Shown piece after piece: positions 341 to 26,807 of a stretch of 27,386 nucleotides of DNA. Both the position numbers and the translations under genes were made by a program. Below the pieces are notes generated by a model. The model saw nothing but the letters and a program-made list of their open reading frames with translations. It was not told the DNA's origin and made no database searches. The stretch covers positions 1 to 27,386 of the forward strand of contig JBMFJD010000009.1 in NCBI GenBank assembly GCA_049974095.1, written 5' to 3'. Within the stretch, counting starts at the first letter, position 1. The number at the start of each line of letters is the position of its first letter. This DNA comes from Nanopusillaceae archaeon. GTDB lineage: Archaea > Nanobdellota > Nanobdellia > Nanobdellales > Nanobdellaceae.

Positions 341-354
341 TTTTTTAAAAAATT
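339..354. terminator. Perfect 16-bp A/T palindrome (aattttttaaaaaatt) between convergent genes; candidate bidirectional oligo-T terminator
   Basis: The sequence reads T6 on both strands immediately after the stop codons of the 2..340 (+) and 353..1084 (-) genes. Archaeal termination typically uses oligo-T tracts. Confidence 0.45.
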
Positions 355-2327: not shown

Positions 2328-2335
2328 GTTTTTTT
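2160..2335 (+). ncRNA. Candidate ~175-nt non-coding transcript covering the repeat locus, antisense in orientation to the flanking genes
   Basis: TATA-like tttataaaaa at 2131-2140 lies about 25 nt upstream of R1, and a T7 tract at 2329-2335 follows R4 directly. The locus has locally elevated G+C (gaacccgataaggggg, gagggatgtggc...gcc) in an AT-rich background. Small hairpins are present (ccc-gataa-ggg; ggc-tttcaaaaa-gcc; aagct-agg-agctt; aacct-aga-aggtt). No ORF. Confidence 0.3.
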
Positions 2336-3245
2336 ATTCTGTTTGTCCAAAGATTATTATTAATGGTTTTTGTAAATCTTTATCTTCTGTAAATACTTTT
2401 GCGTTTACTACAGATCTTAAATACATATCAATTAATCCTTGACCCTCATAGAATTTTTTAACACCTTCTCCCATTGTGTAATATCTCATACCCTTAGATG
2501 CTTCTCTTATATCTGACATAAATAGACCTGTGTTTAGTATTACGTATTTCCATGCATCATATACATATCTGTTTTCTGGTTCTTGGTCTATTCTTTTATT
2601 ATTAAAGGATATATAGAAGTCCCATGGTTTCATTACATATTCTACCTTATCAACACCTATTTTATATTTAAGGTCTAATTCTATATAACTACCATTATAT
2701 ATATGATTTTCACCAAATATTCTAATTAATTCATCTCTTACACTTGTAAATTCTTTTCTTGATAACCAAAGTATGAATTTATCATCCCATAATACTTTTG
2801 CATGTAAATTCGTTATTAATGATGTAATTAGTAAATTCCAATCATCATTTTCTTCCATTGATACATAACCATCATATCTGGCAGATACGTATAGGTTTTT
2901 CATTGTATTACCTATTGATATACCAACATCTGGTGTTATATAACATACGTTTTTACTACAGGTATCCTCTAATTCTTTTACTAATTCTTTTAATCTTAGG
3001 TTTCTATTATAGAAAGTATAATAATCGGAACCTGGGGTAAAATCATTACCTGTATTTCTACTAATTGCCCTTAATGATGCATCTGTAAATCTAAATTTTT
3101 TACCATCTCCGGTTTCACATGTATAAAAGTTATAACTTGCTCTTCTTGTTTCAAATTTGCATTTCATTTCATTTGAATTTTCAAATATTTTTCCTATTAC
3201 GTATAGGGAATATGTTGATGAATCTATTATATATGTATCTGTCAT
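2334..3245 (-). CDS. Hypothetical protein, paralog A of a two-member family
   Basis: 303-aa ORF colinear with the neighbouring 327-aa ORF. Shared blocks include Y(I/V)IDxxxYxxYV(I/V)GK(I/M)FE(N/R)SN, YTCETxDG(K/R)KFxFxD, LxELVKELE, NVCY(I/V), and YLRS(V/I)xNAK near the C-terminus. Confidence 0.75.
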   Translation of the reverse strand: MTDTYIIDSSTYSLYVIGKIFENSNEMKCKFETRRASYNFYTCETGDGKKFRFTDASLRAISRNTGNDFTPGSDYYTFYNRNLRLKELVKELEDTCSKNVCYITPDVGISIGNTMKNLYVSARYDGYVSMEENDDWNLLITSLITNLHAKVLWDDKFILWLSRKEFTSVRDELIRIFGENHIYNGSYIELDLKYKIGVDKVEYVMKPWDFYISFNNKRIDQEPENRYVYDAWKYVILNTGLFMSDIREASKGMRYYTMGEGVKKFYEGQGLIDMYLRSVVNAKVFTEDKDLQKPLIIIFGQTE

Positions 3246-3297: not shown

Positions 3298-4281
3298 CTA
3301 AACATTATATAAGTATATATTTTTTGGTTGTTCTTCACCAATTGATACTGCCATAGGCATTAATAGATCTTTATTATCAGTTAATATTTTTGCATTTGCT
3401 ATAGATCTTAGATATATTTCTGGGTATCCTTCAAATTCTTCTACAACATATGGTATTATATATAGATTACCAGATTCATAATCTTCTATTTTCTTTAATG
3501 ACTCATAGAAGTCTGCGAAATCTATTGTTCTACTACGTACCTCATCCCACATATGATATAATGCCATATCTTCTCCTCTTTGTATCTTTTTTCCATCTAT
3601 TATATTGTATTCTTCGAATACCCTTTCTCTTACCCCATTTGGATATGTTATATATTCGTTTGTTGGTTCTTGTATATCTTCATATGTATGGGATCCTACT
3701 TTATATTTTACATGTAATGCTATATCTTCACCTGCATCTATTCTATTAAAACCAAAAGAGTTAATTATGTTTTTTCCTATTATAAGATCATATGGATATG
3801 GAATGAAATGTGTTATTTTGATATCATATAATACTTTTGCATTTAGGTCATATAAATGATTTATTATTAGTCTATTAAATTCATCATTTTTATCTATTTT
3901 GTAAAATCTAACAACTGCAAATAAATTTCTTGGTGAACCCTTATCTATTACTGTAATATTTGGTGCTACATAACATACGTTATCTGGATTATTACATAAT
4001 TTTTCTAGTTCTTTTACTAATTCATTTAGTTTTTGATTTCTATTATATATGGTAATTTGTTTTTGATCTTGGTTAAATTCATTTCCTGTATATTTACTAA
4101 TTAATTTTATTGCTCCATCGGAAAATTCAAATTTTCTACCATCACTAGTTTCACATGTATAAACATTATGCCACCTTTCTTCTTTCTCAAAATTACAGGT
4201 TAATGTATTTGATCTTTCAAACATTTTACCTACTACATATTTTGTATATAGAGGACCATCTATAACATACCTTTCTACCAT
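3298..4281 (-). CDS. Hypothetical protein, paralog B of a two-member family
   Basis: See paralog A. The conserved blocks occur in the same order, and each gene has its own upstream TATA-like region. Confidence 0.75.
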   Translation of the reverse strand: MVERYVIDGPLYTKYVVGKMFERSNTLTCNFEKEERWHNVYTCETSDGRKFEFSDGAIKLISKYTGNEFNQDQKQITIYNRNQKLNELVKELEKLCNNPDNVCYVAPNITVIDKGSPRNLFAVVRFYKIDKNDEFNRLIINHLYDLNAKVLYDIKITHFIPYPYDLIIGKNIINSFGFNRIDAGEDIALHVKYKVGSHTYEDIQEPTNEYITYPNGVRERVFEEYNIIDGKKIQRGEDMALYHMWDEVRSRTIDFADFYESLKKIEDYESGNLYIIPYVVEEFEGYPEIYLRSIANAKILTDNKDLLMPMAVSIGEEQPKNIYLYNV

Positions 4282-4339: not shown

Positions 4340-6121
4340 TTATTGTTTATTCAATTTTTTCTTTTTCTTTCTACGTTTCTTTATAAATATTATTGAGGTA
4401 GGTATTGATACTAAGATACCAGATACTGTACCTGTGATTGTTATATAATTTAGTTTTATTGTTTTTGTTGGATATAATGATATTTGTATTGGTTGATTTA
4501 CAGTTATGTTTTCTGGGTCTATTGTATATATATTATAGTAAAAGAAACGGTCTTTTATTATTACAGATTTATGTATGTATATTGTTTGGTTTACAGGTAT
4601 GTAATCTGAATATGATGTTATATTTGTTATTGTAATACTTCCTATTGTTATATTTATTGGTAATTTAGAATTTATTTGTACATAGTATTCTGGTATACAA
4701 TAGTTTAATAATTGGATATTTTCTGGACCAGATACTGTTATATTTACCTGTCCTGGACATTCATATCTCAGATTATTATAGTAATAGTATTTGTTTAGGT
4801 ATATTGTTAGTGTTGTTCCATTTTCTACAGTAATTGTATTTTCACCAATATATTGTTTATTATTTACAAAATATTTGCCACCAGGTATGGTAAGATCAAC
4901 AAAATAATATAGTTTGTAATTTAGATTTATTGTATAATTTTTGTCTATTAGTAATGGTATTGATGAACTTGGGTGGAGAATGTTGTTTACATATATACCC
5001 ATTAATTTATAGTAACCACCAGGTACTGTTATAATTGGTGTAAAATTGTATACTTTGTATAGAATTATTGGGGATGTTTCTGTTTCATATTCTTTTGTTA
5101 TTGGGTTATATATTGTTACTGTATAATATGATATATTTTTACTGCCTAAGTAACCTGGATAAAAGTAACCTGTGGATAAATATGCTTCTGTTGATGATAC
5201 TAATAATGGGTTAATGTTTGTAGATTCTTCTGCAGTATTTAGTCCGTAATTAAATACATATGGGGCTGTTGATAAGTTACCGTTGTTATTATATAGTAAA
5301 GCCAGATATCCATCTATTTTATCTGCATATATACATTCGCTGTTTCCTGGTCCTCCTATTACTAATTCCAGATTTTTTACTGTGTAATCTGGGGTGTATG
5401 ATGGAGAAACTTGAAAATATGCAGATACGGAAGGTACTTCAACAGTTACATTATCATACCAGATTGTATTATTTCCATCTAATGAATACCCGAATTGAAT
5501 TACTGGATAAGAGTTATTATTTATATATACTTTCATTATTAAATATACAGCAATTGGGTATATTAGATCATAACTATCTGTTGAATATACATAAAATTTT
5601 GTTGTATGTGGGAAAGAGAAGTATGTTTTTATAATACCTCTACCATATACTGGATAGTTCTCTAATACGTTATCATATTTATTAGCATCCCAGATATTAT
5701 TAACAAATTCATAACTAAGATCTTCATTATTAAAATCAAGAACATTTTGCGCCCATAAATAGTATGTACGTCCATAATTTGAATTAATTGCTACAACACC
5801 ATTTAGTTGTACAGTTCCTGCATTTTCATATTCTGATGCGCATAAAGGACCAGGTTCTGGTTTTGTATCGAAGTATTTTAGATATACAAATCCTACTACC
5901 TCATCAGTATTATATGAATATTGATACACTTTATCGTTTATTAATGCAATACCATAATCTGCTATTCCTACTGGTAAATAAATTAATCCAGAATATTCTG
6001 TAGCATATAAATCTACAAGCGATGAGTAACAACCTAGACCATTTATATTACAAGCATTATATATTGAAAAATAAGATAGATTTGGTAAAGATACAGATAT
6101 AGGAAGACCAAAAAGGGTCAT
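4340..6121 (-). CDS. Large surface/envelope-type glycoprotein with a C-terminal membrane anchor
   Basis: 593 aa. There are many N-x-S/T sequons (NLS, NGT, NNS, NVT, NIS, NFT, NYT, NIT...). The composition is beta-rich and Y/N/T-rich. The C-terminal hydrophobic helix ITITGTVSGILVSIPTSIIFI is followed by the basic tail KKRRKKKKKLNKQ. Confidence 0.7.
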   Translation of the reverse strand: MTLFGLPISVSLPNLSYFSIYNACNINGLGCYSSLVDLYATEYSGLIYLPVGIADYGIALINDKVYQYSYNTDEVVGFVYLKYFDTKPEPGPLCASEYENAGTVQLNGVVAINSNYGRTYYLWAQNVLDFNNEDLSYEFVNNIWDANKYDNVLENYPVYGRGIIKTYFSFPHTTKFYVYSTDSYDLIYPIAVYLIMKVYINNNSYPVIQFGYSLDGNNTIWYDNVTVEVPSVSAYFQVSPSYTPDYTVKNLELVIGGPGNSECIYADKIDGYLALLYNNNGNLSTAPYVFNYGLNTAEESTNINPLLVSSTEAYLSTGYFYPGYLGSKNISYYTVTIYNPITKEYETETSPIILYKVYNFTPIITVPGGYYKLMGIYVNNILHPSSSIPLLIDKNYTINLNYKLYYFVDLTIPGGKYFVNNKQYIGENTITVENGTTLTIYLNKYYYYNNLRYECPGQVNITVSGPENIQLLNYCIPEYYVQINSKLPINITIGSITITNITSYSDYIPVNQTIYIHKSVIIKDRFFYYNIYTIDPENITVNQPIQISLYPTKTIKLNYITITGTVSGILVSIPTSIIFIKKRRKKKKKLNKQ

Positions 6122-6693: not shown

Positions 6694-6709
6694 TATAATA
6701 TATAGTATA

Positions 6710-6728
6710 ACAAATATTTATATGTGTT
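6710..6728 (-). promoter_or_regulatory. Extended TATA promoter motif (minus strand reads aacacatataaatatttgt)
   Basis: Member of the recurrent AACACWTATAARTATTTGT family. The TATA core is about 25 nt upstream of the ATG at 6693. Confidence 0.55.
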
Positions 6729-6944
6729 TTATAGTGGCATGGTAAAAAACTAGTTTTTCTAAATATATATATTATGAAAGTTATTACCGATTTTTGCATG
6801 TTGTTAGGTCTATATGTTAGGAAGCTATATATAAAACCTATGGAACGTTTGAAAATCATAGCTGTATGTTTTGAATGAGTTTATAAATGTTTACGCCTTA
6901 TAATTGGATTGATATTTTTTATTTTTTTTGAAAAAGAAAAATAA

Positions 6945-6962
6945 GGGGTAAGAGTATACCCC
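6945..6962. other. GC-clamped hairpin ggggta-agagta-tacccc at the outer edge of the left arm
   Basis: A 6-bp stem with a 6-nt loop is read directly from the sequence. A degenerate mirror copy lies at about 7570-7589. G4/C4 runs are conspicuous in this AT-rich DNA. Confidence 0.4.
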
Positions 6963-7277
6963 GTAATTATTTCTTACTCAAAAGTAGTAAAATTGTATAT
7001 TATATCATATCTTTTTAAAATATATGCAATATACAATGTAGTAAAAATTTATAAATTTTTTATAATATGTGTTAATATGTATAATATTTGTTTTTATGTG
7101 TTCACATATTTATATTTGTTATATGTATTATTATGTGTATATGTTATTATTATTACTAAGTAGTAGATATGTATATATATTTATAAATATATCTATAAAA
7201 AAGAAGATAATATAGAAATAATATATATTTAAAAAATATAAATAGCTAATAATATGGCAAAAAAGAGATGTTATCAC

Positions 7278-7378
7278 TTATTAATAATAAATAATAACAT
7301 AATAATTTAAATAATTTATTATTATTATTAATTATTATTTTTTAATAATAAATAATTATTAATAATAATTAATATAAA
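7278..7378. other. Near-pure A/T core; candidate DNA unwinding element
   Basis: About 100 bp contain a single C (7298). The tract is built of aataat/attatt units and includes a 15-nt direct repeat, ttaataataaataat, at 7281 and 7342. Confidence 0.5.
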
Positions 7379-7530
7379 CAACTACTGTACAGTGGTAGTA
7401 GTAAAAATTACACATATTATTATGTGTACACATATAAACACATATAACACATAAAAACACATATAAAGAAAAATTTATAAATATTAAGTACAATGCATAA
7501 TATATAATCGTTTTTATATTAGCAAATAGT

Positions 7531-7544
7531 TAACACATGTGTTA
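7531..7544. promoter_or_regulatory. Perfect 14-bp palindrome taacacatgtgtta inside the right arm
   Basis: The sequence is self-complementary as read. It shares the CACATGTG core with the 1112-1132 inverted repeat. Confidence 0.4.
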
Positions 7545-7786
7545 TCACTTTTGAGTAAGAAATAATTACGGGGTTGAACTTATACCTCCTTTTTTGCAAT
7601 TTTTTACAAATTAAAAAAATCAGGTGAAAATGATGGCCTTTAATTTTATAAATACATTCCAAAATATATAAATAACACTTTCCATAAGGGATACATGTTA
7701 CATTCATAAAAATTTATAAAGTCATGTAGAAAGTTCTATAATGGGATATAGAAATTCCTTTAAAGTTATCTAAAATAATATATTTT

Positions 7787-8987: not shown

Positions 8988-11132
8988 ATGGCAGAAAAAG
9001 AGAAAAAAGAAAAAATTGTTTTTAGTGGAGGAGTTATACCACTACATACCAGAGAGGTATATATACCAGATAAATTGAAAGAAATGTATATAAACTTTTT
9101 GAAACAGAAGGCACAACAAACATTAACAAATATAGGGATAAATGATGAGTGGGATCTAAAAATAAATGAAGATTTTAAAAAGGTTAAACGTCAAGCTTTG
9201 GAAAATTTCTTTAAATTAGAAGATCCTGGATATACTATTGTAAATTTTGATGATTTATACAAATTCTTATCTTCTATAGGGTTAAGAGATGCTTTTAAGA
9301 AATCTGGGGGTATAATAAAGTATTTATTACCACATTATGTAAATGAAGAATTGAAAATTACTTGGGATCTTCCAATATATATAAAAAATATTCCAGAAAA
9401 ATTTACAAAAACTACAAAAGAATTTTTAGAGTCAGATAGTGACGATGTTGTTGTTTTAAAGGGATTTGTGGATTCTATAACATATATAAATGATATTCCA
9501 GTATTCTTTGTTGTTAGACATTCATTATGTGGAGGTACATTTTTGGTTGAAAATGATATTCCTCATAATAAAGGTTTGAAGAACATATTAAAAAATAAGA
9601 TAAATGCTTGCCCATTATGTGGATCATCTGAAGGTCAATTCGTTGTTGAGAAAATTATTGCAACAGATGCATATAAGTTAACAATAAGTGATATACCAAA
9701 AGATGAAGGAAAAAATGTAAAGTTTGTTGAGGCATATATATTTGGTAAGGCAATGGATTTGTATAGTATACCATCTGCAAGAATTGGTTTGGTTGGTATT
9801 ACTAGAAGGATATTTAATGGTAAAGAGATAGAATCTTATTTAGAAGTTGTTGGTATCGAACCTTTAGATAAAACAGTAGAAGAGATAGAATTAAAGGATG
9901 AAGATATAAAAGAGATTGTAAATACTGTAAGAGGATCTGGATACAATATAATTGATATGATTGCAGAATCTATGTTGCCAAATATAAAAGGAGATCAATA
10001 TAAATATATTAAAAGAGCTGTATTATTACAAGCAATGTCTGTTAGTCAACAAAAAGAAATTGATTTATTAGCAGATAGATTACATATAAATATATTATTA
10101 TTAGGAGATCCAGGTACAGGTAAATCCACATTATTGAGAACAGTTTCAAAACTAATACCTAAATCTAGATATGCTGTAGCTACTTCTTTAACAAAAGCAG
10201 GTTTGTTGGGTACAGTTACTAAATCTGAGGAGGGTAAATGGGTATTAGAAGTTGGTATATTGCCATCAGCATCTGGAGGATTATTATGTGTTGATGAAGT
10301 AAATAAGTTATCTCCAGATGATATAAAATCGTTAAATGAGGCAATGGAACATGGAACTGCAACAATTGATAAAGCAAGTGTACATGTTACATTAAGAGCA
10401 AATGCAGCAGTATTGGCAGCATCGAATCCAAAATATGGAAGATGGGATCCAAATAGAGAGTTAATAAACCAGATAGATATAGAACCAACAATGTTATCCA
10501 GGTTTGATTTAATATTTGTATTAAGAGATATACCAAACAAAGAACAGGATATTTTAGAGGCAAAAGAAATATTGGGAAAAAATAAAGTTGATAATTCATA
10601 CTTTAGTAAAGACTTTATATTGAAATATATAGCATATGCAAGGTCAATAAATCCAGAAATAAGTGATGAAGCAGAAACATATATTGCAAAATTATATGCA
10701 GATCTAAGAGATAAAACAAAAGATACATTTCCAATAACTAAAAGACAATTGGGAACAATAGAAAGATTAGCAATTGCAATTGCTAAAGCCAGGTTGAGTA
10801 ATGTTGTTACAAAAGAAGATGTAGATTATGCATGGGAAATAATATCAAATAGTATATATAGCATGGTTGGTAATGCTACACAGTTAGATTTTGGAGTTGT
10901 TGAAACTGGAGTAAAAAGTAGTGCAAAGAACAGATCAAAATTAGTAAAGGAGGTAATTGAGCAACTAAATAAAACATATGGTAAGGGAGTTACTTTCAAT
11001 GACATATATAATTATCTAAAAGATAAATATGGTTTAGATATATCACAAACAGAACTTAAGGATCTCATTTCGCTATTAAAATATAGTGGGGATATATATG
11101 AACCGGAACCAGGTTTGTACAATGTATTATAA
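8988..11132 (+). CDS. mcm: MCM replicative helicase, full length (N-terminal Zn/OB domain, AAA+ core, C-terminal winged helix)
   Basis: Walker A is ILLLGDPGTGKST and Walker B is LLCVDEVNKL. Sensor 1 is AVLAASNP and the Arg finger is MLSRFDLIFVL. The lid reads ITKRQLGTIERLAIAIAKARLSNVVTKEDVDYA. Zinc motif is HSLCGG...CPLCGS. The linker motif LPNIKGDQYKYIKRAVLLQ precedes the AAA+ core. Confidence 0.9.
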   Translation: MAEKEKKEKIVFSGGVIPLHTREVYIPDKLKEMYINFLKQKAQQTLTNIGINDEWDLKINEDFKKVKRQALENFFKLEDPGYTIVNFDDLYKFLSSIGLRDAFKKSGGIIKYLLPHYVNEELKITWDLPIYIKNIPEKFTKTTKEFLESDSDDVVVLKGFVDSITYINDIPVFFVVRHSLCGGTFLVENDIPHNKGLKNILKNKINACPLCGSSEGQFVVEKIIATDAYKLTISDIPKDEGKNVKFVEAYIFGKAMDLYSIPSARIGLVGITRRIFNGKEIESYLEVVGIEPLDKTVEEIELKDEDIKEIVNTVRGSGYNIIDMIAESMLPNIKGDQYKYIKRAVLLQAMSVSQQKEIDLLADRLHINILLLGDPGTGKSTLLRTVSKLIPKSRYAVATSLTKAGLLGTVTKSEEGKWVLEVGILPSASGGLLCVDEVNKLSPDDIKSLNEAMEHGTATIDKASVHVTLRANAAVLAASNPKYGRWDPNRELINQIDIEPTMLSRFDLIFVLRDIPNKEQDILEAKEILGKNKVDNSYFSKDFILKYIAYARSINPEISDEAETYIAKLYADLRDKTKDTFPITKRQLGTIERLAIAIAKARLSNVVTKEDVDYAWEIISNSIYSMVGNATQLDFGVVETGVKSSAKNRSKLVKEVIEQLNKTYGKGVTFNDIYNYLKDKYGLDISQTELKDLISLLKYSGDIYEPEPGLYNVL

Positions 11133-11188
11133 TAGTTCAATTTTTTTATACTATACCCTTTTAAATATGTATATTAATATTTACTAAT

Positions 11189-12106
11189 ATGAGAGTAAAG
11201 TATATCTTACCTCTTATATTAGGTGTATTTGCATTTAGTATATTCTCCCAACAACCACAATGGCAATTTGTTACTTTTGGTAGCCCTAACGGTGGACAAG
11301 TTACATTACCTATATATATGACACAATTAGTATATCAATTGAATGTATCTCAAAACACATCAGCACAATTTATTCAAGTAACTATTCCACAATCTATTTT
11401 ACAACAACAATTACAATATTGTAAAACTTATGATCCATTCATATCAAATAATATATCCTTATTACAATGTGCTTTTGCTTATCCAAGTATAGTGATAGTT
11501 TATACTATTTCTGGATCTACGCCAAATAATGCATATGAGATTCCATATAACATGATTATTATGAGTTATGATAATGTAACAGGTTTACCACAAACCTTCC
11601 AAATCTATTTGAATAATCACATAGGTGCTTTAAATCCAGGTTTATACTTTGTATATGTTTACTACGGGGGTCCTTACTACTTTCCATATGCATCAATGAC
11701 AAGTAATAAAATACCATCATGTCCTAGTTTAGGTACAATACAATATGCTACTCCATCAGACTTTGATGGTGGATGGTGTGGTGCTGGTGGTGGAATATTT
11801 TATTCATATCCATGGGGACAAGGATATAATACAGGTTCTAATACAGAGAGATATCTATTTGTAAAATTTAATCCTCAATATCCAGTATTAGTTGAATTAA
11901 CGTCTTCCAGTGGATCAGTTACAGTAGAAAATCCATCTACAGGTCAAACAGCAACGTTGTCTATTAATGGAGGAGTATTATATGATCTAAGATTATTGGA
12001 ACAACAAAATGGATTAAATCTATATCAATGGAATGAAATAGTAGACATTAACTTAGTATTTGGATGGATAAATGGTTTCTTCTTAATATATACACCACAA
12101 ACATAA
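11189..12106 (+). CDS. Secreted glycoprotein, paralog 1 of 3
   Basis: Signal peptide is MRVKYILPLILGVFAFSIFSQ. Family blocks are IQVTIPQSILQQQLQYCKTYDPFI, SYDNVTGLPQTF, CPS...FDGGWC, RYLFVKFNPQYPVLV, VTVENPSTGQT..LSINGGVLYDLR and QWNEIV. Multiple N-x-S/T sequons are present. Confidence 0.8.
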   Translation: MRVKYILPLILGVFAFSIFSQQPQWQFVTFGSPNGGQVTLPIYMTQLVYQLNVSQNTSAQFIQVTIPQSILQQQLQYCKTYDPFISNNISLLQCAFAYPSIVIVYTISGSTPNNAYEIPYNMIIMSYDNVTGLPQTFQIYLNNHIGALNPGLYFVYVYYGGPYYFPYASMTSNKIPSCPSLGTIQYATPSDFDGGWCGAGGGIFYSYPWGQGYNTGSNTERYLFVKFNPQYPVLVELTSSSGSVTVENPSTGQTATLSINGGVLYDLRLLEQQNGLNLYQWNEIVDINLVFGWINGFFLIYTPQT

Positions 12107-12159
12107 TTCAATTTTTTAGTACTATATCCTTTTAAATATGTATATTAATATTTACTAAT

Positions 12160-13182
12160 ATGAGATTCAAGTATATCTTACCAATTATATTTAGTATATT
12201 AGGATTTAGTATATTTTCTCAACCACCAATATGGCAAACTGTTAGTTTTAATACACCTAGTGGTCAATCTGTGACAATACCATTATATATGACACAATTA
12301 GTATATCAGGTAAATATAACACCAGGTACATCTTTGCAATACGTACAGATAACTATTCCACAATCTATATTACAACAAGAATTACAATATTGTAAAACAT
12401 ATGATTCATTTATAGCAAATAATATATCTGTATTACAATGTGCATATGCATACCCAAGTATTGCTGTAGTTTATAATAATCCATACTCTAATCCACCATC
12501 TATGGCAAATGGCAATTCATATGAGATCCCATACTATATGGATGTTTTAAGTTATGATAATGTAACAGGTTTACCACAAACCTTCCAAATCTTTATTAAT
12601 AATTATGTTGGAACATTATCTGCAGGTACTTACTATATATATGTTTACTACGGAGGTCCATACTATATGTCACTTGCATCAGTGACAACTAACAGCATAC
12701 CATCATGTCCAAGTGTTAGTTCTTTACCTTATGCTACAACAAGTAACTTCGATGGTGGATGGTGTGGAAGTAATGGTGGTGCAAGTTTCCCAGGATATTC
12801 AAAACCATGGGGACAAGCAATTACTACTACAGGTGGTGGAAGCTTTACCATAACAAGATACCTTTATGTAACCTTTAATCCACAATATCCAGTATTAGTT
12901 GGATATCAAAGAGCATATTGTGCTAGTGGTTGTTCAGATAGTGGATCTGTAACAGTAGAAAATCCATCTACAAGTCAGACACAAACATTATCTATTAATG
13001 GAGGAGTATTATATGATCTAAGAATATTAGAACAACAAAATGGATTAGATCCAGATCAATGGAACGAAATAGTAAATGTAAGTTTAAGCGCATCTCATCC
13101 TGCAGTTTATTGTTGGTATAGTTGTGAATATGCTGGTTCAGCTCTACCAGGTTTTTACTTACTCTATACACCACAAACATAG
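12160..13182 (+). CDS. Secreted glycoprotein, paralog 2 of 3
   Basis: It has the same signal peptide and conserved blocks as paralog 1. Longer insertions contain extra Cys pairs (YCASGCSD, YCWYSCEY). Confidence 0.8.
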   Translation: MRFKYILPIIFSILGFSIFSQPPIWQTVSFNTPSGQSVTIPLYMTQLVYQVNITPGTSLQYVQITIPQSILQQELQYCKTYDSFIANNISVLQCAYAYPSIAVVYNNPYSNPPSMANGNSYEIPYYMDVLSYDNVTGLPQTFQIFINNYVGTLSAGTYYIYVYYGGPYYMSLASVTTNSIPSCPSVSSLPYATTSNFDGGWCGSNGGASFPGYSKPWGQAITTTGGGSFTITRYLYVTFNPQYPVLVGYQRAYCASGCSDSGSVTVENPSTSQTQTLSINGGVLYDLRILEQQNGLDPDQWNEIVNVSLSASHPAVYCWYSCEYAGSALPGFYLLYTPQT

Positions 13183-13235
13183 TCCAATTTTTTTATACTA
13201 TATCCTTTTAAATATGTATATTAATATTTACTAAT

Positions 13236-14276
13236 ATGAGATTCAAATTAAGGTACATTTTACCAATTATATTTGCAATAATTGGATTTAGTATATTCTC
13301 CCAACAACCACAATGGCCAATGGGTGCATTATCAACAATAGGAGGAACTCAAACACAGATACCATTATATTCAACAGAGTTAGTATATCAGGTAAATGTA
13401 TCTCAAAATGCTACTTTACAATTTATTCAAGTAACTATTCCACAATCTATATTACAACAACAATTACAATATTGTAAAACTTATGATCCATTTATAACAA
13501 ATAATATATCTGTAACTCAATGTGACTTTGCATATCCAGCAATGGCTATAGTATATAATTCTACTTCTGGTTCACAGGTAGGATATGAAATATCATATTT
13601 TATAGTACCTGCTTCATATGATAATGTTACAGGATTGCCAAATACTTTTGATATCTTATTAAACAATCGTATTGGTGTATTAGGTGTAAGTAGTACTCCA
13701 TATTTTGTATATATATTGTATCCATCTCCATACTATTTATCTTTTGAATCACTATTTAATTCACAAAGTATGCCACAATGTCCAAGTGTTAGTTCTTTAC
13801 CTTATGCTACAACAAGTAACTTCGATGGTGGATGGTGTTCAGATACTGGAGGATTCGGAGCTAATTATCAACCAAACTCTTATCTATCTTATCAATATCC
13901 ATATGCACAATCACTTTATTATTCATCTTGTGCAAATGGTTGTATAGTTCTTGGTGGTGTTAATATAACAAGATATCTTTATGTAACCTTTAATCCACAA
14001 TATCCAGTATTAGTTGGATTTATGTCAGTAGGAACTGGACCTAATTTTGGTGGTTATGTAACAGTAGAAAATCCATCCACAGGTCAGACACAAACATTAT
14101 CTATTAATGGAGGAGATATATTATATGATCTAAGAATGTTAGAGTTGGGTCAAGGATTAAATCCATATCAATGGAATGAAATAGTAGATGTAAAACATGG
14201 TGATTCATCAGGTGTTTGTACTTTTTGTGGCGCTTTTGCTTCAACAGGTATATATCTACAATATGTACCGCAATAG
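13236..14276 (+). CDS. Secreted glycoprotein, paralog 3 of 3
   Basis: It has the same signal peptide and conserved blocks. Its variable inserts are distinct (SSCANGCIVLGG, GVCTFCGAF). Confidence 0.8.
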   Translation: MRFKLRYILPIIFAIIGFSIFSQQPQWPMGALSTIGGTQTQIPLYSTELVYQVNVSQNATLQFIQVTIPQSILQQQLQYCKTYDPFITNNISVTQCDFAYPAMAIVYNSTSGSQVGYEISYFIVPASYDNVTGLPNTFDILLNNRIGVLGVSSTPYFVYILYPSPYYLSFESLFNSQSMPQCPSVSSLPYATTSNFDGGWCSDTGGFGANYQPNSYLSYQYPYAQSLYYSSCANGCIVLGGVNITRYLYVTFNPQYPVLVGFMSVGTGPNFGGYVTVENPSTGQTQTLSINGGDILYDLRMLELGQGLNPYQWNEIVDVKHGDSSGVCTFCGAFASTGIYLQYVPQ

Positions 14277-14299: not shown

Positions 14300-14321
14300 A
14301 AACACATATAAGTATTTGTTT
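14300..14321 (+). promoter_or_regulatory. Extended TATA promoter motif aaacacatataagtatttgttt
   Basis: The TATA core is about 25 nt upstream of the ATG at 14335. An identical 22-mer recurs at 26735-26756. Confidence 0.55.
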
Positions 14322-14334
14322 GTAAATATGTATT

Positions 14335-15192
14335 ATGGATTTCCAAGATTTAGTGAATGGTCTATTCCCATCACTAAAGGGGAATGTTTACAAATATATT
14401 AGACAAGCTGTTGCATATCAATTAATCTCTATAGGAAAGACACCTTTCTTTAGAGATTCTATACATATATTATTATTAGGAGAACCTGGTACTGGGAAAT
14501 CTCATATGTTAAAATATGTAAGTATGATACCCGGAAATAAATATGTAAACGGGGAAAATCTAACAATTGCAGGTTTGATAGGATATACTAGTATGTATAA
14601 TGTACAGCAGGGTGTTGTATCTTTAGTAAATGGTATATTATGTATAGATGAGATAACAAAAGCAAATAAAACTGTAAGAGAAAGGATGAATGAATTATTA
14701 GAAGAGCTATCTGTTACTATTGCTAAAGCTGGTAAGATGGTAAAATATGATGTAAATCTTGCTGTACTTGCTGCTGCAAATCCAAAACATGGGGTATTTA
14801 AAGGTAAAGATATTATTGAACAGATAGATTTACCTCCAACAGTTGTTGACAGGTTTGATTTAATATTTGTATTAAGAACTCAAAATATAGATAAAATAGC
14901 AACGGAGAATTATGTATTTAATAATGATGAATTAGTAAAATATTTGAATGAAGTAAGGAGTATAAATCCAGATATTGGTATATTTGATTTAGGTAAATTA
15001 AATATAGCATTACCTACATCTGGTGTATATTTATCAGATAGAAGATTAATGACTATATTAAGATTAGCAAAAGCAATAGCCAGATCATATAAAGATAATG
15101 TAGTAAAAGATGAATATATTGAAGAGGCCGAAAAATTCTTTATTAAAGTAGTAAATAGATTATTCGGATATGATATACAAGATATTGACTAA
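14335..15192 (+). CDS. Stand-alone MCM-type AAA+ core (no N-terminal domain, no winged helix), catalytic motifs intact
   Basis: It starts exactly at the MCM linker motif (LFPSLKGNVYKYIRQAVAYQL, compared with LPNIKGDQYKYIKRAVLLQ in the full MCM). Walker A is ILLLGEPGTGKSH and Walker B is LCIDEITKA. Sensor 1 is AVLAAANP and the Arg finger is VVDRFDLIFVL. The lid reads LSDRRLMTILRLAKAIARSYKDNVVKDEYIEEA. A 28-nt identity to mcm links 14850-14877 with 10499-10526. Confidence 0.85.
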   Translation: MDFQDLVNGLFPSLKGNVYKYIRQAVAYQLISIGKTPFFRDSIHILLLGEPGTGKSHMLKYVSMIPGNKYVNGENLTIAGLIGYTSMYNVQQGVVSLVNGILCIDEITKANKTVRERMNELLEELSVTIAKAGKMVKYDVNLAVLAAANPKHGVFKGKDIIEQIDLPPTVVDRFDLIFVLRTQNIDKIATENYVFNNDELVKYLNEVRSINPDIGIFDLGKLNIALPTSGVYLSDRRLMTILRLAKAIARSYKDNVVKDEYIEEAEKFFIKVVNRLFGYDIQDID

Positions 15193-16972: not shown

Positions 16973-17228
16973 TATATATTTAGATGATGGAGTAGAATTA
17001 AACAAATTATTTAGTATGCTAAATGATGAGAATATTAAGAAAATTAGGGAATTTTTAATTAAATATGTAAATAGCAATAATTACTTAGAGTTAATAAATG
17101 ATACAGATATCCAAAATAATCAGGATATAATATATATAATGAAGTATCTTGGTATTATTACTGAAGTATCTGGTAAATACTATATAATTATACCTGTAGC
17201 GAAAACACTTATAAATATTTGTCAGTAA
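16953..17228 (+). CDS. Small hypothetical protein (possible winged-helix)
   Basis: 91-aa ORF overlapping the previous gene by 20 nt. No strong motifs. Its 3' end contains the promoter motif of the next gene. Confidence 0.5.
   Translation: MVCIPYDIYLDDGVELNKLFSMLNDENIKKIREFLIKYVNSNNYLELINDTDIQNNQDIIYIMKYLGIITEVSGKYYIIIPVAKTLINICQ
17204..17223 (+). promoter_or_regulatory. Extended TATA promoter motif aacacttataaatatttgtc
   Basis: The same 20-mer occurs at 18043-18062. The motif starts 33 nt upstream of the ATG at 17237. Confidence 0.55.
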
Positions 17229-17940: not shown

Positions 17941-18042
17941 GTTAATATTATATTAGGATATAATGACTGTAAGTATGAGGATACAAGTAAAAATTAAAGT
18001 ATAGTATGTAATGTAAAGGTGAAGGTATCTAGTGCCGTACAT

Positions 18043-18062
18043 AACACTTATAAATATTTGTC
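18043..18062 (+). promoter_or_regulatory. Extended TATA promoter motif aacacttataaatatttgtc
   Basis: The motif starts 34 nt upstream of the ATG at 18077. This supports the ATG over the GTG at 18032 used by the ORF track. Confidence 0.55.
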
Positions 18063-18076
18063 TAATACGTATTTTT

Positions 18077-18709
18077 ATGGATAGGAAAAGTATTATTGCT
18101 ATTTCTTTATCTGCACTTATAGCAATATCTGTACTCTTATTTGTGATAACTCATAGGAATTCTGTTAATGAATATAAAATATTATATGAAATAGCGGCAA
18201 CAGGTAATACATATATACCTGGAGGTGATAAAATAATTACAGTATATTTCTCTCCAGAAGATCCATATTCAATCTTGTTTTTAGCTTATGATTTACCAAT
18301 ATACATGAAGAATAATTTTACAGTAATATTAAGACCTGTATCATCAGATAACGATTCTTTATTGATAGGATGTTATAATAGTATAACGTATGATCAGCTA
18401 ATGAAAATTATTGAAAACTTTACATATGCATATAATAATTCTCCAAGTTATGTAATCCAATGTTTCAATAATAATCAGTCTTATCAATATATACTAACCA
18501 ATTATGAGATACTCGTAGGGACTCATATGTTGGGAACACCAGCATACTTTTTAGTATTTCCATCAGGAAATATTACTGCAATAAATGATACTCTAAGAAC
18601 ACTGGATGTTATTGTAAATCCTATAAGATACGATAATGATTATATTATGTTGTTATATGGATACATACCAGTAAATGTTACAGAGAAAATAGTACAGGAG
18701 ATTCAATAA
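18077..18709 (+). CDS. N-terminally anchored membrane/secreted protein
   Basis: The product begins MDRKSIIAISLSALIAISVLLFVITH (signal anchor). There is a weak resemblance to a Cys-less thioredoxin/DsbA-like fold: ITVYFSPEDPYSILF where CPxC would sit, and LGTPAYFLVFPSGN. N-x-S/T sequons are present. Confidence 0.6.
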   Translation: MDRKSIIAISLSALIAISVLLFVITHRNSVNEYKILYEIAATGNTYIPGGDKIITVYFSPEDPYSILFLAYDLPIYMKNNFTVILRPVSSDNDSLLIGCYNSITYDQLMKIIENFTYAYNNSPSYVIQCFNNNQSYQYILTNYEILVGTHMLGTPAYFLVFPSGNITAINDTLRTLDVIVNPIRYDNDYIMLLYGYIPVNVTEKIVQEIQ

Positions 18710-18726
18710 ATATTTATAAGTGTTTT
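18708..18726 (+). promoter_or_regulatory. Inverted copy of the extended TATA motif (aaatatttataagtgtttt)
   Basis: This is the reverse complement of aaaacacttataaatattt (17202-17220). The TATA core is again about 26 nt upstream of an ATG (18742). Confidence 0.5.
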
Positions 18727-18741
18727 TTATATTCATATTTT

Positions 18742-20589
18742 ATGAAAAATGAAGTGTTTGATATAAAAGGTTTGATTAGAAAAATAGGTGTTAAAATAAT
18801 AACAGTATTATTAATAACCTTTTTCTTATATTCAGTAAATTCACAGCCAGCAATAACATTTCCAAATTGTATTCAATCAGCTCCTAATGCTTATTTATGT
18901 AATATAAATCCAAGTAGTCCTTTCGTATATTTTAATATTTATAATACGGAGATTCCATTTAATTTAACAATAGAATACAATGGTATTCCAGCAGCAATAT
19001 ATCAAGCGGGTACGTATATTGGAAGCGGGTCATCATTTACTACTAATACTACAATACCTGTTGGTACTACTCCATTCGAAATGTCTGTTACATCATCAGG
19101 ATCTTCAGTAATAACATTCTTATTTGCAGGATTTTCTAATGCTACTAATAGTACTATAACATATAATTATACATATGCGTTGTCGATAAACTTACAGTCA
19201 ACAACTACTACCACAACATCAACACAAAATACTACTACCACAACTACTACAACCACACCCCCAACTACAACCACACCACCACCTACAAATTATACAGGAG
19301 TGCCTGTTACTCCAATATACTCAACAATATACTTAACATTATATCCAAATCAAACATATCAATATCCAATAGGGCTAGTTGATACATCTCCTTATAATGT
19401 TACTGTTTTATCTGTAGTTATACAAGGATTACCTCCACAAAATGCAAATATACAAGGGGCATTTGGTACACTTCAACCTGGTCAAGTAGCATCTGGTGTA
19501 TTATATATTAATACTGCAGGTATGCAACCTGGTCAATATACATTCAATATAGCATACTCTGTTGAGGCAAATAATCAAGTATATAATGTACAAACAAGTG
19601 TTACTTTAACAGTTATTTCCCAATTATCTCAGCAAACATCTCAGACATCTCAAACAAATCAAACAACACTCCAGATAACGAGTCAAGGGTTACCATTATA
19701 TGTTAACTATTCTATAGTTGGTAATTATCTGTTTATTGGTGGAGCATATACTATATATAACGGAGAACAAATATATTTGTCTGGAGTCAATATTATGGTT
19801 ATAGGACCAGGTGGACAAGCATTAACATATTTATACCCAATACAGGTATATCCAGGACAAACATATTGTATATATGCATATGATCAAGGATTTGTTCCAT
19901 TCTTTACATGTCAACAGATACCACCAAGACCATTATGTTATATTTTGTCTCCACAAGGACAACAATATAATAATCAAACATTTTATCAGGATGGGACACA
20001 GGTTACTATAAAATCCATATATGATTGTCAAACACTTCAACCAGTATATGGTGTTGTAATATATTATGATAATCAACCAGTTAATCAACAGACATTTACA
20101 ATACAGGAGGGATCAAATAATATTGCAATATCTGCTCCAGGATATACATTAACTAATATAACATTATATGGATATATACCTGTACAGGTTAATAATTTAC
20201 CAAGTACTCCAGGTCAATATAATATTACTACTACAGGTACATTTGCTAGCCAAGCACAATTGCAATTATATACTTATGTTAATGGTACTAAGACAATATT
20301 AGCAACAGGTACAGGATTCTTATTCTATAACTTTACTAATGATACATATTATTTAGTATTAGATGCTCCATTACAAAATGAGGCAACATATACTATAACA
20401 ATATTACCCCCAATTATTCCAACACAGGTATCTTCATTTAATATAAACGAATTTATATTATCTAATATATGGTATCTTATAATAGGATTCTTGATATTTA
20501 CATTAATATCAATAATAATATATAAGAAAGGACATAAAGATGTATCTGAATTGGCTAAACAAATTGTAGAAGAATCTAAGAAACTATGA
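18742..20589 (+). CDS. Large Thr/Pro-linker glycoprotein with N-terminal signal and C-terminal membrane anchor
   Basis: 615 aa. The signal region is VKIITVLLITFFLYSVNSQ. The low-complexity linker TTTTTTSTQNTTTTTTTTTPPTTTTPPPT lies at about nt 19198-19290, and an SQQTSQTSQTNQTT repeat follows. There are many N-x-S/T sequons. The C-terminal TM is IWYLIIGFLIFTLISIIIY, followed by KKGHKD. Confidence 0.75.
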   Translation: MKNEVFDIKGLIRKIGVKIITVLLITFFLYSVNSQPAITFPNCIQSAPNAYLCNINPSSPFVYFNIYNTEIPFNLTIEYNGIPAAIYQAGTYIGSGSSFTTNTTIPVGTTPFEMSVTSSGSSVITFLFAGFSNATNSTITYNYTYALSINLQSTTTTTTSTQNTTTTTTTTTPPTTTTPPPTNYTGVPVTPIYSTIYLTLYPNQTYQYPIGLVDTSPYNVTVLSVVIQGLPPQNANIQGAFGTLQPGQVASGVLYINTAGMQPGQYTFNIAYSVEANNQVYNVQTSVTLTVISQLSQQTSQTSQTNQTTLQITSQGLPLYVNYSIVGNYLFIGGAYTIYNGEQIYLSGVNIMVIGPGGQALTYLYPIQVYPGQTYCIYAYDQGFVPFFTCQQIPPRPLCYILSPQGQQYNNQTFYQDGTQVTIKSIYDCQTLQPVYGVVIYYDNQPVNQQTFTIQEGSNNIAISAPGYTLTNITLYGYIPVQVNNLPSTPGQYNITTTGTFASQAQLQLYTYVNGTKTILATGTGFLFYNFTNDTYYLVLDAPLQNEATYTITILPPIIPTQVSSFNINEFILSNIWYLIIGFLIFTLISIIIYKKGHKDVSELAKQIVEESKKL

Positions 20590-23493: not shown

Positions 23494-24107
23494 GCCCATT
23501 ACCTGTAAATGTAACTTCTTTACAAGGTACTATAACTTCTTTTTCTAATGTATTTCATAATTTTAGTATATCTGCTGTAGTAGCAATTGTATTCCTTTTA
23601 GTTGCATTTCTATTATTTTCTCTTATTATTAGAAATATACTATCATCGTTTATACCTAGGTTTTCTCTTCTAACTATTATATTGGTTGTATCTTACTTAG
23701 TAGCATTCTCATATTATGTACCAGTATATATACCACAAACATTTGTTACTGTAGTAAATAATACAACAGTAGTTAATACAAATGTGACATCTCATCTATT
23801 ATCAACATATAATTTTATTATAATAACTAAATTTTATGATAACCTATTATATTATATGGCACAGTATAAAGTATCGCCTTCAGATATTCTAGTACCTTAT
23901 GTTATACTAATACTATTTTACATATATTTTATCTATGCACTATACAATAGAATAGGAAAAATGGCAATACCTATTGCAGCACTCTTGCTCTTTGTAATTA
24001 CATTGGGAATGACGGGGCTAATGTTTGCTAGCATAACATATAGTACATTATTATATATGGACCTGTCTCTGGCATTATTATCTGCTATTGCATTTGTATT
24101 AGCATGA
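23490..24107 (+). CDS. Polytopic membrane protein
   Basis: It has ATGA overlaps at both ends. There are about 5 hydrophobic segments, with a luminal N-x-T-rich loop (VVNNTTVVNTNVTS). Confidence 0.65.
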   Translation: MSPLPVNVTSLQGTITSFSNVFHNFSISAVVAIVFLLVAFLLFSLIIRNILSSFIPRFSLLTIILVVSYLVAFSYYVPVYIPQTFVTVVNNTTVVNTNVTSHLLSTYNFIIITKFYDNLLYYMAQYKVSPSDILVPYVILILFYIYFIYALYNRIGKMAIPIAALLLFVITLGMTGLMFASITYSTLLYMDLSLALLSAIAFVLA

Positions 24108-25231
24108 GTGCTAGAGATTTAATAGATGATTATAAAAAAAGAGATGGATTGTTAGGATTGTTAAGAGAATTTAGGGATAAATTGATTAATGATTTTCAAA
24201 ATGAATTTACTAGAATATGGAAAGAGGCATTTCCAAGTTCTAATATAGAAGTTATACCATTAGAGGCTGTTGGAAGATTTCTTGGTGTATTTGTATCTGC
24301 ATATACTAGAGCTAGAAAAGATAGAAAAGCAAAATTAGATCCATATTTAAAAGAGTTTACAGATTTATATAATAGGTATAGGAATATAATGTCAAATATA
24401 ACATTTGGTCAATTATTAAGATTAATAGCTACAGGAGAGAGATTGAGAGAAACGATTAATGGTACTACATATATGGAATTCTTAGTAAGATTACATGATT
24501 GGATAGATGAGATAGTATTTATATTTAAGATGAGCGAACAAAATATAAGACCATATTTCCCAGATATCTATAATTATTACGATAAAATGGTTAAGGTATT
24601 AGTAGATGTATCTACCGATTATGTTGGAGGTGTATGGGAAGGTGCATTCGAATTTATATTTGGAGGGTTTATTCATCTTGATAACTTCATGTATGAGGTT
24701 ACAAATGATTTAGATATAGGTACCTGGGAACCTTTTGTATATTATATTGTTAAATTAATAAAAATATTAGCTATAGCTGCAGGATATGATGTTGTATTTC
24801 CACCAGACTTCTTTAGTCCAGAAGAATCAAGTTCTGGATATGGAGCTGCAGGGGATTGGGAATATCTATTAAGAGTATATCCAAAAGAAAGTATTGGTAC
24901 AGATGCTGCGAAGATAACTGAAGATACTTTATTATCTATGGCAGCTCAGGTTGGTGTTGATGTAAAAGATGATGTTGCTGAATTAAAGAAGGCTGATAAA
25001 GATCTTAGAAGGATGGTTGATGAATTTCCTGCATATTTCTATGTTGTAGCATTAACTGGAGGGATGTATAGAGAAAGGGTAGTATATAAAGGGTATATAC
25101 CATGGGATTTCTTAGCATATCCTATACAGGAAATAGCTAATAAGTTACAGAAGATTAAATATGCTGTAAGACCAAGGAGAAGAGGACATAGATCTCCAAG
25201 GAGACCTAGATATAGATATTGGACTTACTGA
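24104..25231 (+). CDS. Hypothetical protein with an Arg-rich C-terminal tail
   Basis: 375 aa. It ends AVRPRRRGHRSPRRPRYRYWTY, a possible nucleic-acid-binding tail. It is the last gene of the coupled operon. Confidence 0.6.
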   Translation: MSARDLIDDYKKRDGLLGLLREFRDKLINDFQNEFTRIWKEAFPSSNIEVIPLEAVGRFLGVFVSAYTRARKDRKAKLDPYLKEFTDLYNRYRNIMSNITFGQLLRLIATGERLRETINGTTYMEFLVRLHDWIDEIVFIFKMSEQNIRPYFPDIYNYYDKMVKVLVDVSTDYVGGVWEGAFEFIFGGFIHLDNFMYEVTNDLDIGTWEPFVYYIVKLIKILAIAAGYDVVFPPDFFSPEESSSGYGAAGDWEYLLRVYPKESIGTDAAKITEDTLLSMAAQVGVDVKDDVAELKKADKDLRRMVDEFPAYFYVVALTGGMYRERVVYKGYIPWDFLAYPIQEIANKLQKIKYAVRPRRRGHRSPRRPRYRYWTY

Positions 25232-26734: not shown

Positions 26735-26756
26735 AAACACATATAAGTATTTGTTT
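26735..26756. promoter_or_regulatory. Extended TATA promoter motif aaacacatataagtatttgttt (identical to 14300-14321)
   Basis: The TATA core lies about 26 nt from the minus-strand ATG at 26718, giving the same geometry as the inverted copy at 18708-18726. It could also serve the plus-strand ORF at 26808, but only with a leader. Confidence 0.45.
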
Positions 26757-26807
26757 CAAATATATTAAACAAATAATACATAAAAATGAATATTAAATAT
26801 ATTATTA

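Follow-up and report, generated by a model that had tools for sequence, protein, structure and literature searches.

The stretch of DNA considered here, referred to throughout as the window, comprises 27,386 nucleotides of a contig (JBMFJD010000009.1, GenBank assembly GCA_049974095.1) assigned to a Nanopusillaceae archaeon. Three head-to-tail open reading frames (ORFs) on the + strand, which we call the cassette, fill positions 11133–14276 and encode proteins that are 61–67% identical to one another (70–77% at the DNA level). The three genes, copies 1 to 3, share a constant scaffold, are mosaics of one another, vary in number among related loci and concentrate their amino-acid differences in three loops. 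We read them as attachment or receptor-recognition subunits displayed on a particle or on the infected-cell surface, a reading to which we assign a probability of about one half.

Architecture of the cassette

Each ORF is preceded by a unit of 53–56 nt which begins immediately behind the preceding stop codon and contains a stretch of six or seven T followed by CC/TCCTTTTAAATATGTATATTAATATTTACTAAT-ATG (Table 1). The last 36 nt, through ATGAG (11158–11193 in the first unit), are 100% identical in all three copies, giving three matches in the window where none is expected, and the TATA-like element TTTTAAATA sits about 27 nt 5′ of the ATG, a layout shared by several other genes of the window. The T-run is a probable archaeal terminator and, judged by general archaeal promoter geometry, the whole unit apparently joins this terminator to the promoter of a leaderless mRNA, which would make the cassette three separate transcription units. 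In the encoded proteins the blocks QSILQQ.LQYCKTYD, SYDNVTGLP, FDGGWC, FNPQYPVLV, VTVENPST, LYDLR and QWNEIV are invariant. An earlier note on this DNA, written from the letters by a model, had described three consecutive genes with a near-identical promoter/leader of about 55 nt, a common ..FSIFSQ N-terminus and long invariant blocks, placed between replication genes. The ORF coordinates and the 36 identical nucleotides bear this out, and the genes on either side are an MCM helicase and a paralogue of its AAA+ and lid domains.

The note had also named three positions at which the copies differ sharply, and these correspond to real, indel-rich segments, here termed loops A, B and C (Table 1). 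Three further, milder variable stretches, at the mature N-terminus (approximately residues 22–44) and at residues 101–126 and 142–175, had escaped it.

Sequence exchange and changes in copy number

The pair of copies that is most alike switches repeatedly along the genes. Copies 1 and 3 are closest at codons ~55–80, copies 1 and 2 at codons ~130–145 and 296–315, and copies 2 and 3 at codons ~186–202 and ~251–267, the former containing a run of 61 nt without a difference; exact runs of 43 and 41 nt join copies 1 and 2 and copies 1 and 3, respectively. Block-wise synonymous divergence (dS) among the three spans 0 to 1.9. When all informative sites were subjected to a runs test, 144 runs were counted against 199 ± 8 expected (p<1e-4), and third codon positions alone gave 66 runs against 81 ± 5 (p=0.002). 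This switching of the closest relative indicates gene conversion, and the mosaic recombination first proposed from stretches in which one or another pair of copies matches exactly is thereby confirmed.

Comparison with related loci reveals that the number of units also changes. One related locus (L002) has the same order of MCM followed by cassette as the window; its first copy (A) combines a copy-1-like scaffold with copy-2-type loops, the next is copy-3-like, and there is one unit fewer ahead of the copy-3 type. A second (L003) is arranged as copy A, copy B, a gene for a 499-aa secreted protein and copy C, and a third (L004) has A followed by C only, being without the 2.6 kb of L003 that hold copy B and the 499-aa gene, with flanks that are 99.5% identical (99.5–100% in the downstream DNA). 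Copies B and C of L003 have an identical N-terminal stretch of ~95 aa (P0010/P0011), likely the site of a 2.6-kb deletion or insertion. Copies A and C of L003 have 63 codons free of any difference, yet they carry ~80 non-synonymous differences in the loops. Conversion thus homogenises scaffold and promoter and unequal recombination alters copy number, with the loops staying distinct.

Variation focused in the C-terminal loops of a surface protein, combined with gene conversion between copies, is also what programmed hypermutation or switching might produce, whether the cassette were the target of a diversity-generating retroelement (DGR), an invertible shufflon or an expressed gene supplied by silent donors, and DGRs occur in nanoarchaea. 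Present data largely exclude such a system. No reverse transcriptase, invertase or integrase domain is present in any ORF of the 35.5 kb of the element that could be reconstructed, and neither a non-coding template repeat nor inverted repeats around the cassette were found there, the only repeats that match the cassette being its own paralogues. The differences include many indels instead of adenine-specific substitutions, all three copies are full-length with the same 36 nt from promoter to start, so that none is a silent donor, and two near-identical contigs display no hypervariation.

Distribution of amino-acid change

Overall ω among the three paralogues is 0.43–0.65 (Nei–Gojobori). Differences were divided between scaffold and loops A–C for ten pairs, copies from related contigs included, of which one, copy 3 with the truncated copy B of L002, offered no changes in the loops for comparison. 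For the remaining nine the ratio of non-synonymous to synonymous differences per site (pN/pS) was 0.87–1.54 in the loops versus 0.31–0.47 in the scaffold, and the ratio of non-synonymous to synonymous counts differed between the two compartments in seven (Fisher p 0.03 to 3e-5). Amino-acid change is concentrated in loops A–C. The view of these proteins as diversifying loops on a constant scaffold is upheld as far as the non-synonymous excess in the loops is concerned, but positive selection is not established.

Putative export signal, composition and cysteines

All three proteins begin with MR[VF]K, followed by ~15 hydrophobic residues and then I-F-S-Q, a design predicted to be a Sec signal peptide, with probable cleavage after the I-F-S-Q region. 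Some 20 cellular Nanopusillus thermopsins begin in this way too (..FNIYSQNY), and similar signal ends in S-Q or P-Q are found on three proteins whose only likeness to the cassette family is in the signal peptide: a 615-aa ORF of the window (...YSVNSQ), the 499-aa protein of L003 (...YNIYPQ) and a truncated ORF at ~26805 (...PIFSQ). The I-F-S-Q type looks like the usual Sec signal of the Nanopusillus lineage. The 499-aa protein, which is encoded in a more distant lineage at L003 1887–3386 and L005 84–1478, has 5% charged residues and 15 sequons.

The proteins of the window are bimodal in composition. Charged residues (K+R+D+E) make up 6.2–6.9% of the cassette proteins versus 22–34% of the MCMs and other cytoplasmic-type ORFs, and S/T/N/Q/Y/P together account for 47–51%; the charge level matches that of the 615-aa ORF (5.7%), whose signal peptide is complemented by a membrane anchor at the C terminus. 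A local drop in GC skew is due to the low-charge composition of the cassette proteins. Each of them has 4–6 N-X-S/T sequons, the one within YDNVTGLP being nearly invariant across the family, and from these sequons and the composition the proteins are probably N-glycosylated.

Four cysteines are conserved (C78, C94, C178 and C197 in copy 1 numbering). Copy 1 has four in all and copies 2 and 3 have eight each, the extra ones being paired within the variable segments, in agreement with what had been noticed in the inserts at the outset. Among relatives, P0003 and P0005 have three cysteines in loop B and one in loop C, and P0007, P0011 and P0017 have one in loop A and one in loop C. The odd loop counts in these five proteins give even totals only with disulfides between loops, which suggests that loops A–C are spatial neighbours.

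Taken with the low charge, the sequons and the predicted signal peptide, the cysteine pairs of the loops make an extracellular location likely. Among the cassette products we encountered neither proteins of cytoplasmic type nor variable segments that were buried or disordered and devoid of non-synonymous excess, either of which had been named at the outset as grounds for abandoning the idea of a diversifying surface family.

The same properties could belong to proteins which are secreted by the nanoarchaeal carrier or decorate it, and which alter its attachment to a crenarchaeal partner or block superinfection. Such a role would accord with a secretion signal that is not accompanied by a membrane anchor, with the extracellular composition, and with the further surface genes of the element, namely the thermopsin-like gene, the anchored and sequon-rich 615-aa ORF and several polytopic membrane proteins. 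The family has moreover been seen only with such elements binned with Nanopusillaceae, and Nanoarchaeota rely on cell–cell contact (PMC4935971). No cell-wall or S-layer anchoring motif is recognised in the proteins, however, and all these features suit a particle protein equally; we consider a cell-surface modifier rather unlikely.

Predicted fold

Structures were predicted with AlphaFold2 for copy 1 and copy 3, using a 17-sequence alignment of the family as input. Both models are nearly all beta and of moderate confidence, with predicted local distance difference test (pLDDT) values of 68.6 and 69.6 and predicted template modelling (pTM) scores of 0.63 and 0.67. Loops A–C are placed between strands of the C-terminal half, at pLDDT 52–58 versus 75–90 in the flanking core strands. 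The best local match of the copy 3 model is to the carbohydrate-binding module (CBM) CBM16 (2zey), with a template modelling score (TM-score) of 0.53 on target length, a probability of 1.0 and a root-mean-square deviation of 5.0 Å over 157 columns; weaker local matches include a mannanase CBM, the phage K2-2 tailspike, the turret of the haloarchaeal virus HFTV1, GH12, Cry-toxin domains and an endo-arabinanase. The top matches of the copy 1 model are different, consisting of bicupins with TM-scores of 0.25 or less, and a viral fold library (BFVD) contained nothing convincing for the models. The bicupin matches prompted the idea of a double-jelly-roll capsid protein, which neither the copy 3 model nor the viral fold library supports. 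No capsid protein of PRD1, STIV or PBCV type is among the top 50 PDB or BFVD matches listed for either model, an exclusion which at a pLDDT of ~69 is not firm.

A broader alternative is that the genes encode heteromeric capsid or coat subunits, the loops of which vary merely through being exposed and unconstrained. Archaeal viruses, for example lipothrixviruses and sphaerolipoviruses, often have paralogous capsid genes side by side, and the predicted two beta-sandwich domains per chain, with bicupin-type matches (two jelly-roll-like barrels) at the top of the copy 1 list, would be in keeping with such a function. So would the separate promoters of the three genes, each with a strong canonical TATA, an acid-stable composition and a loop pN/pS of about 1, as neutrality would give. 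Capsid proteins assembled in the cytoplasm would nevertheless not be expected to carry a cleavable Sec signal peptide, and a copy number that varies among close relatives (two or more, three, and three with an extra gene) fits poorly with a fixed stoichiometry. The fold matches listed from PDB and BFVD include no double-jelly-roll or other capsid protein, and no packaging ATPase of FtsK/HerA type was found, the ATPases seen all being AAA+ MCM or MoxR-like and coverage of the ~7.6 kb of the source contig outside the window being partial. A coat function is in our view doubtful.

Local matches to GH12 glucanases, an endo-arabinanase and CBM-bearing enzymes also raise the prospect of secreted beta-jelly-roll enzymes, such as glycan or S-layer hydrolases used for entry or exit, with loops that shape a substrate groove, and at the level of motifs there is faint similarity to the thermopsin domain of a 593-aa neighbour. 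The only charged residues invariant across the family, however, are D128, R221 and R268; there is no invariant Glu and no conserved acidic pair, and the cassette proteins have no Pfam match at E<=10, thermopsin (PF05317) included. Homology to thermopsins, suggested by an hhalign motif match (NxxYPV.. / VTVExPS / LE), was rejected by profile–profile comparison, in which only the signal peptide aligned with an alignment of 20 thermopsins, at a probability of 2.8%. An enzymatic role is improbable.

A rare and lineage-restricted family

The family is represented by 17 matches among 5.8 billion clustered proteins, and an exhaustive hidden Markov model (HMM) search of 1.84 billion representatives returned eight true matches. 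The sole HMM match outside the family, a 5,599-aa cadherin-like repeat protein, was judged to be the summed weak match of 11 generic beta-sandwich repeats. With about 20 members, the family is rare and restricted to one lineage. Searches of PHROGs, NCBIfam and PDB sequences with the three cassette proteins, like that of Pfam, gave no match, and two profiles found no relative among GTDB species representatives. A scan of one Joint Genome Institute (JGI) metagenome yielded a single locus, and one metagenome-assembled genome of Nanopusillaceae holds three cassette-family genes on an 18-kb contig and, together on one 59.9-kb contig, an MCM and a thermopsin that are both of element type.

The carrier element and its probable host

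Joined to an overlapping JGI contig, the window extends to at least 35,551 nt of contiguous sequence, in which no tRNA, rRNA or other Rfam match and no housekeeping gene was found. Housekeeping genes are likewise missing from all the contigs with the family that were available at full length. The window is AT-rich (~27% G+C). The recognisable genes of the element are MCM relatives, an AAA+ ATPase, a VWA/metallopeptidase-like gene and a thermopsin-like gene; the remainder are without known relatives, several of them encoding membrane proteins or low-charge, sequon-rich proteins. The MCM of the element is 64–79% identical to three element-type MCMs and 36–38% identical to cellular Nanopusillaceae MCMs, and the thermopsin-like gene likewise has element-type relatives at 55–89%, followed by those of cellular Candidatus Nanopusillus at 36–40%. 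This kinship, taken together with the gene content, points to a virus or plasmid that carries genes from a Nanopusillaceae host. The carrier is thus probably a mobile element of the Nanopusillaceae (Nanoarchaeota/Nanobdellota) of acidic hot springs, and probably a virus.

Nanoarchaeota virus 1 (NAV1), which has been linked to Nanoarchaeota of Yellowstone acidic springs, reportedly has a circular DNA genome of 35.6 kb with mostly unknown genes. Its size and host resemble those of the present element, with its length of at least 35,551 nt and its Nanopusillaceae-like genes. The searches of the GenBank phage collection and of IMG/VR gave no match to the element. The ends of the reconstructed 35.5 kb do not overlap, as those of a circular molecule would.

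Interpretation

If the cassette does encode attachment subunits, each copy would be transcribed from its own promoter and ended by its own terminator, and its product would be exported through the Sec pathway and cleaved near I-F-S-Q. Outside the cell the protein would fold into a pair of beta-sandwich domains, stabilised by two conserved disulfides, with the C-terminal domain displaying loops A–C, often stapled by disulfides of their own or shared between them, and three loop variants would be produced simultaneously. Unequal homologous recombination between copies would gain or lose units, short-tract gene conversion would keep promoter and scaffold alike while shuttling loop modules from copy to copy, and in the loops amino-acid changes and indels would build up at a pace close to neutral or above it. 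The earlier note's proposal of a receptor-binding or adhesion family agrees with this in its constant scaffold with loop variation, in the mosaic exchange and in a likely extracellular location; binding itself we can only infer, and the fold matches that might speak for it are weak.

Several observations count against this interpretation. The first group concerns the loops and their evolution. A loop pN/pS of about 1, obtained from a saturated, indel-rich and uncertain alignment, is as compatible with relaxed constraint as with positive selection. Variation at the level of strains, which the label hypervariable would lead one to expect, was not found: a second contig of the same element, 99.83% identical, differs from the window by 31 single-nucleotide polymorphisms over 18.7 kb, of which only three, one of them non-synonymous, fall in the cassette, which makes up 17% of the length, so that there is no excess. 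Between the window and L002 the ω of the cassette (0.34–0.54) is only slightly above that of the MCM (0.32), and a neighbouring 183-aa protein has diverged more than the cassette, to 45% protein identity.

The second group concerns the nature of the proteins and of their carrier. Global TM-scores do not exceed 0.29 for any fold match, which leaves a lectin-like reading weak, and the cassette proteins have neither a membrane anchor nor a recognisable particle-anchoring motif. No hallmark virus gene (capsid, packaging ATPase or integrase) is recognised in the element, for which the word virus draws on gene content and on the likeness to NAV1. Protein and DNA searches of the GenBank phage collection found no relative of the family, and two profiles of the family found none in IMG/VR, where the MCM, both as a sequence and as a profile, and the 615-aa protein were likewise without a match; and no annotated homologue or experiment links the family with virions or with binding. 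We give an attachment or receptor-recognition function about an even chance.

A more specific version, in which the cassette sets the host range of a virus whose nanoarchaeal host is itself attached to another archaeon, with loop variants that are co-expressed and reshuffled through gene conversion and the gain or loss of units, is unlikely on the evidence at hand. Were it true, the element could track variation in the surface of its host, or even target the envelope of the crenarchaeal partner for recognition and exploit the cell–cell junction, and the cassette would be the first attachment-protein family identified for any virus of Nanoarchaeota, with a fold that has no recognisable relative.

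Neighbouring genes and other features of the window

The features of the cassette and of its surroundings are compiled in Table 1. The 285-aa MCM paralogue downstream of the cassette is 36% identical to residues 325–632 of the upstream MCM, with DNA patches of 77–88% identity, and has a promoter motif different from that of the cassette. A third MCM-related ATPase, a 243-aa AAA+ ORF with a weak match to the MCM P-loop, is adjoined upstream of window position 1 by a VWA/DUF2201 metallopeptidase-like protein, an arrangement that recalls MoxR–VWA modules. A 600-aa downstream ORF considered as the N-terminal half of an MCM has no significant similarity to it.

A second pair of tandem paralogues, 36% identical to each other, encodes proteins of cytoplasmic-type composition with four cysteines each and no family match. 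The start of the 593-aa thermopsin-family protein coincides with that of the mature part of cellular Nanopusillus thermopsins, so that it is without their signal peptide; at its other end are a membrane helix and a KKRRKKKKK tail, and its gene follows that of a 188-aa polytopic membrane protein after a gap of 5 nt. Divergently transcribed blocks of genes are separated by a non-coding, AT-rich kilobase (~20% G+C) with nested inverted repeats, which may be a replication origin or control region. The 21-nt motif AAACACATATAAGTATTTGTT occurs five times in the window against none expected, four times just 5′ of genes and once overlapping the 3′ end of ORF 18032–18709, and looks like a second class of promoter or operator, distinct from the cassette promoter.

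The 615-aa ORF combines its signal peptide and membrane anchor with a poly-Thr/Pro linker and 17 sequons, which makes it a candidate for an anchored spike or surface glycoprotein encoded by the element; neither IMG/VR nor the phage collection contains a relative. A 375-aa ORF with an Arg-rich C-terminal tail (RPRRRGHRSPRRPRYRYWTY) and no family match may encode a nucleic-acid-binding or packaging protein. The last ORF, cut by the end of the window, has a ..VPIFSQ signal peptide, many sequons and a WWWW stretch at its end, and is located 3′ of a copy of AAACACATATAAGTATTTGTT.

Table 1. Coordinates of the cassette, its flanking genes and further features (window positions unless another locus is named; aa, amino acids)
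Feature	Positions	Strand	Description
Intergenic unit 1	11133..11188	+	T7 run right after MCM stop codon, then TATA-like TTTTAAATA
Copy 1	11189..12106	+	305 aa; short-loop form; predicted signal peptide 11189–11251
Intergenic unit 2	12107..12159	+	T6 run and identical promoter
Copy 2	12160..13182	+	340 aa
Intergenic unit 3	13183..13235	+	T7 run and identical promoter
Copy 3	13236..14276	+	346 aa
Loop A (copies 1, 2, 3)	11780–11848, 12766–12855, 13839–13970	+	After FDGGWC; 23, 30 and 44 aa; SCANGC in copy 3
Loop B (copies 1, 2, 3)	11894–11917, 12901–12948, 14016–14057	+	Between NPQYPVLV and VTVENPS; 8, 16 and 14 aa; YCASGC in copy 2
Loop C (copies 1, 2, 3)	12050–12073, 13081–13149, 14193–14246	+	Before final G-F-x-L-x-Y-x-P-Q; 8, 23 and 18 aa; YCWYSC in copy 2, VCTFC in copy 3
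Element-type MCM helicase	8988..11132	+	714 aa, complete; upstream flank
MCM paralogue	14335..15192	+	285 aa; AAA+ and lid domains only; downstream flank
AAA+ ORF	353–1084	-	243 aa
VWA/DUF2201 metallopeptidase-like protein	L006 10745–12076		Upstream of window position 1
Second tandem paralogue pair	2334–3245, 3298–4281	-	303 and 327 aa
Thermopsin-family protein	4340–6121	-	593 aa
Non-coding AT-rich region	6700–7780		Putative origin or control region
Inverted repeat, 111-nt arms	7023–7133 / 7396–7506		Within 6700–7780
Inverted repeat, 33-nt arms	6958–6990 / 7542–7574		Within 6700–7780; 94% complementary
AAACACATATAAGTATTTGTT motif	6709–6729 (-), 14300–14320, 17203–17223, 18705–18725 (-), 26735–26755		18705–18725 overlaps an ORF end
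Candidate surface glycoprotein	18742–20589		615 aa
ORF with Arg-rich tail	24104–25231		375 aa
Truncated ORF	~26805–27386		Cut by window end

Significance and comparison with known systems

To our knowledge, almost nothing has been established on cell recognition and entry by mobile elements of the Nanoarchaeota, which are ultra-small and host-dependent. The locus supplies three concrete, expressible candidates with clearly bounded variable loops, and the family of about 20 sequences forms a small and well-defined set for structural and binding studies. It is also a clean natural example of gene conversion holding scaffold and promoter alike while loops differ, and the I-[YF]-S-Q signal ending on unrelated Nanopusillus proteins may aid prediction of the secreted proteome in this lineage. 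If the genes are merely coat subunits or paralogues under relaxed constraint, they represent an ordinary expansion of a gene family in an archaeal mobile element.

Three groups of known systems invite comparison. Nanopusillus thermopsins (PF05317), to which the thermopsin-like gene on the same element is related, are similar in their type of signal peptide (hydrophobic, ending in I-Y/F-S-Q) and in a low-charge composition rich in Asn, Tyr, Ser and Thr, but have no domain homology with the cassette proteins. CBM and lectin-like receptor-binding beta-sandwiches, such as CBM16, the distal domains of tailspikes and tail fibres and domains II/III of Cry toxins, likewise have an extracellular conserved core with variable inter-strand loops at one end and provide the best local fold matches, but with the low global scores given above, no sequence or profile match and no binding residues that could be named. 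The tail-fibre cassettes of phages and the paralogue arrays of bacterial adhesins resemble the locus in their tandem paralogues, exchange of segments, change of copy number and loop-focused variation; here, in contrast, all copies are intact and have the same promoter, silent cassettes, a recombinase and invertible segments are lacking, and the carrier is a nanoarchaeal mobile element. The cassette therefore represents a new protein family of a familiar kind, a tandem and variable family of surface proteins carried by a little-studied mobile element of Nanoarchaeota.

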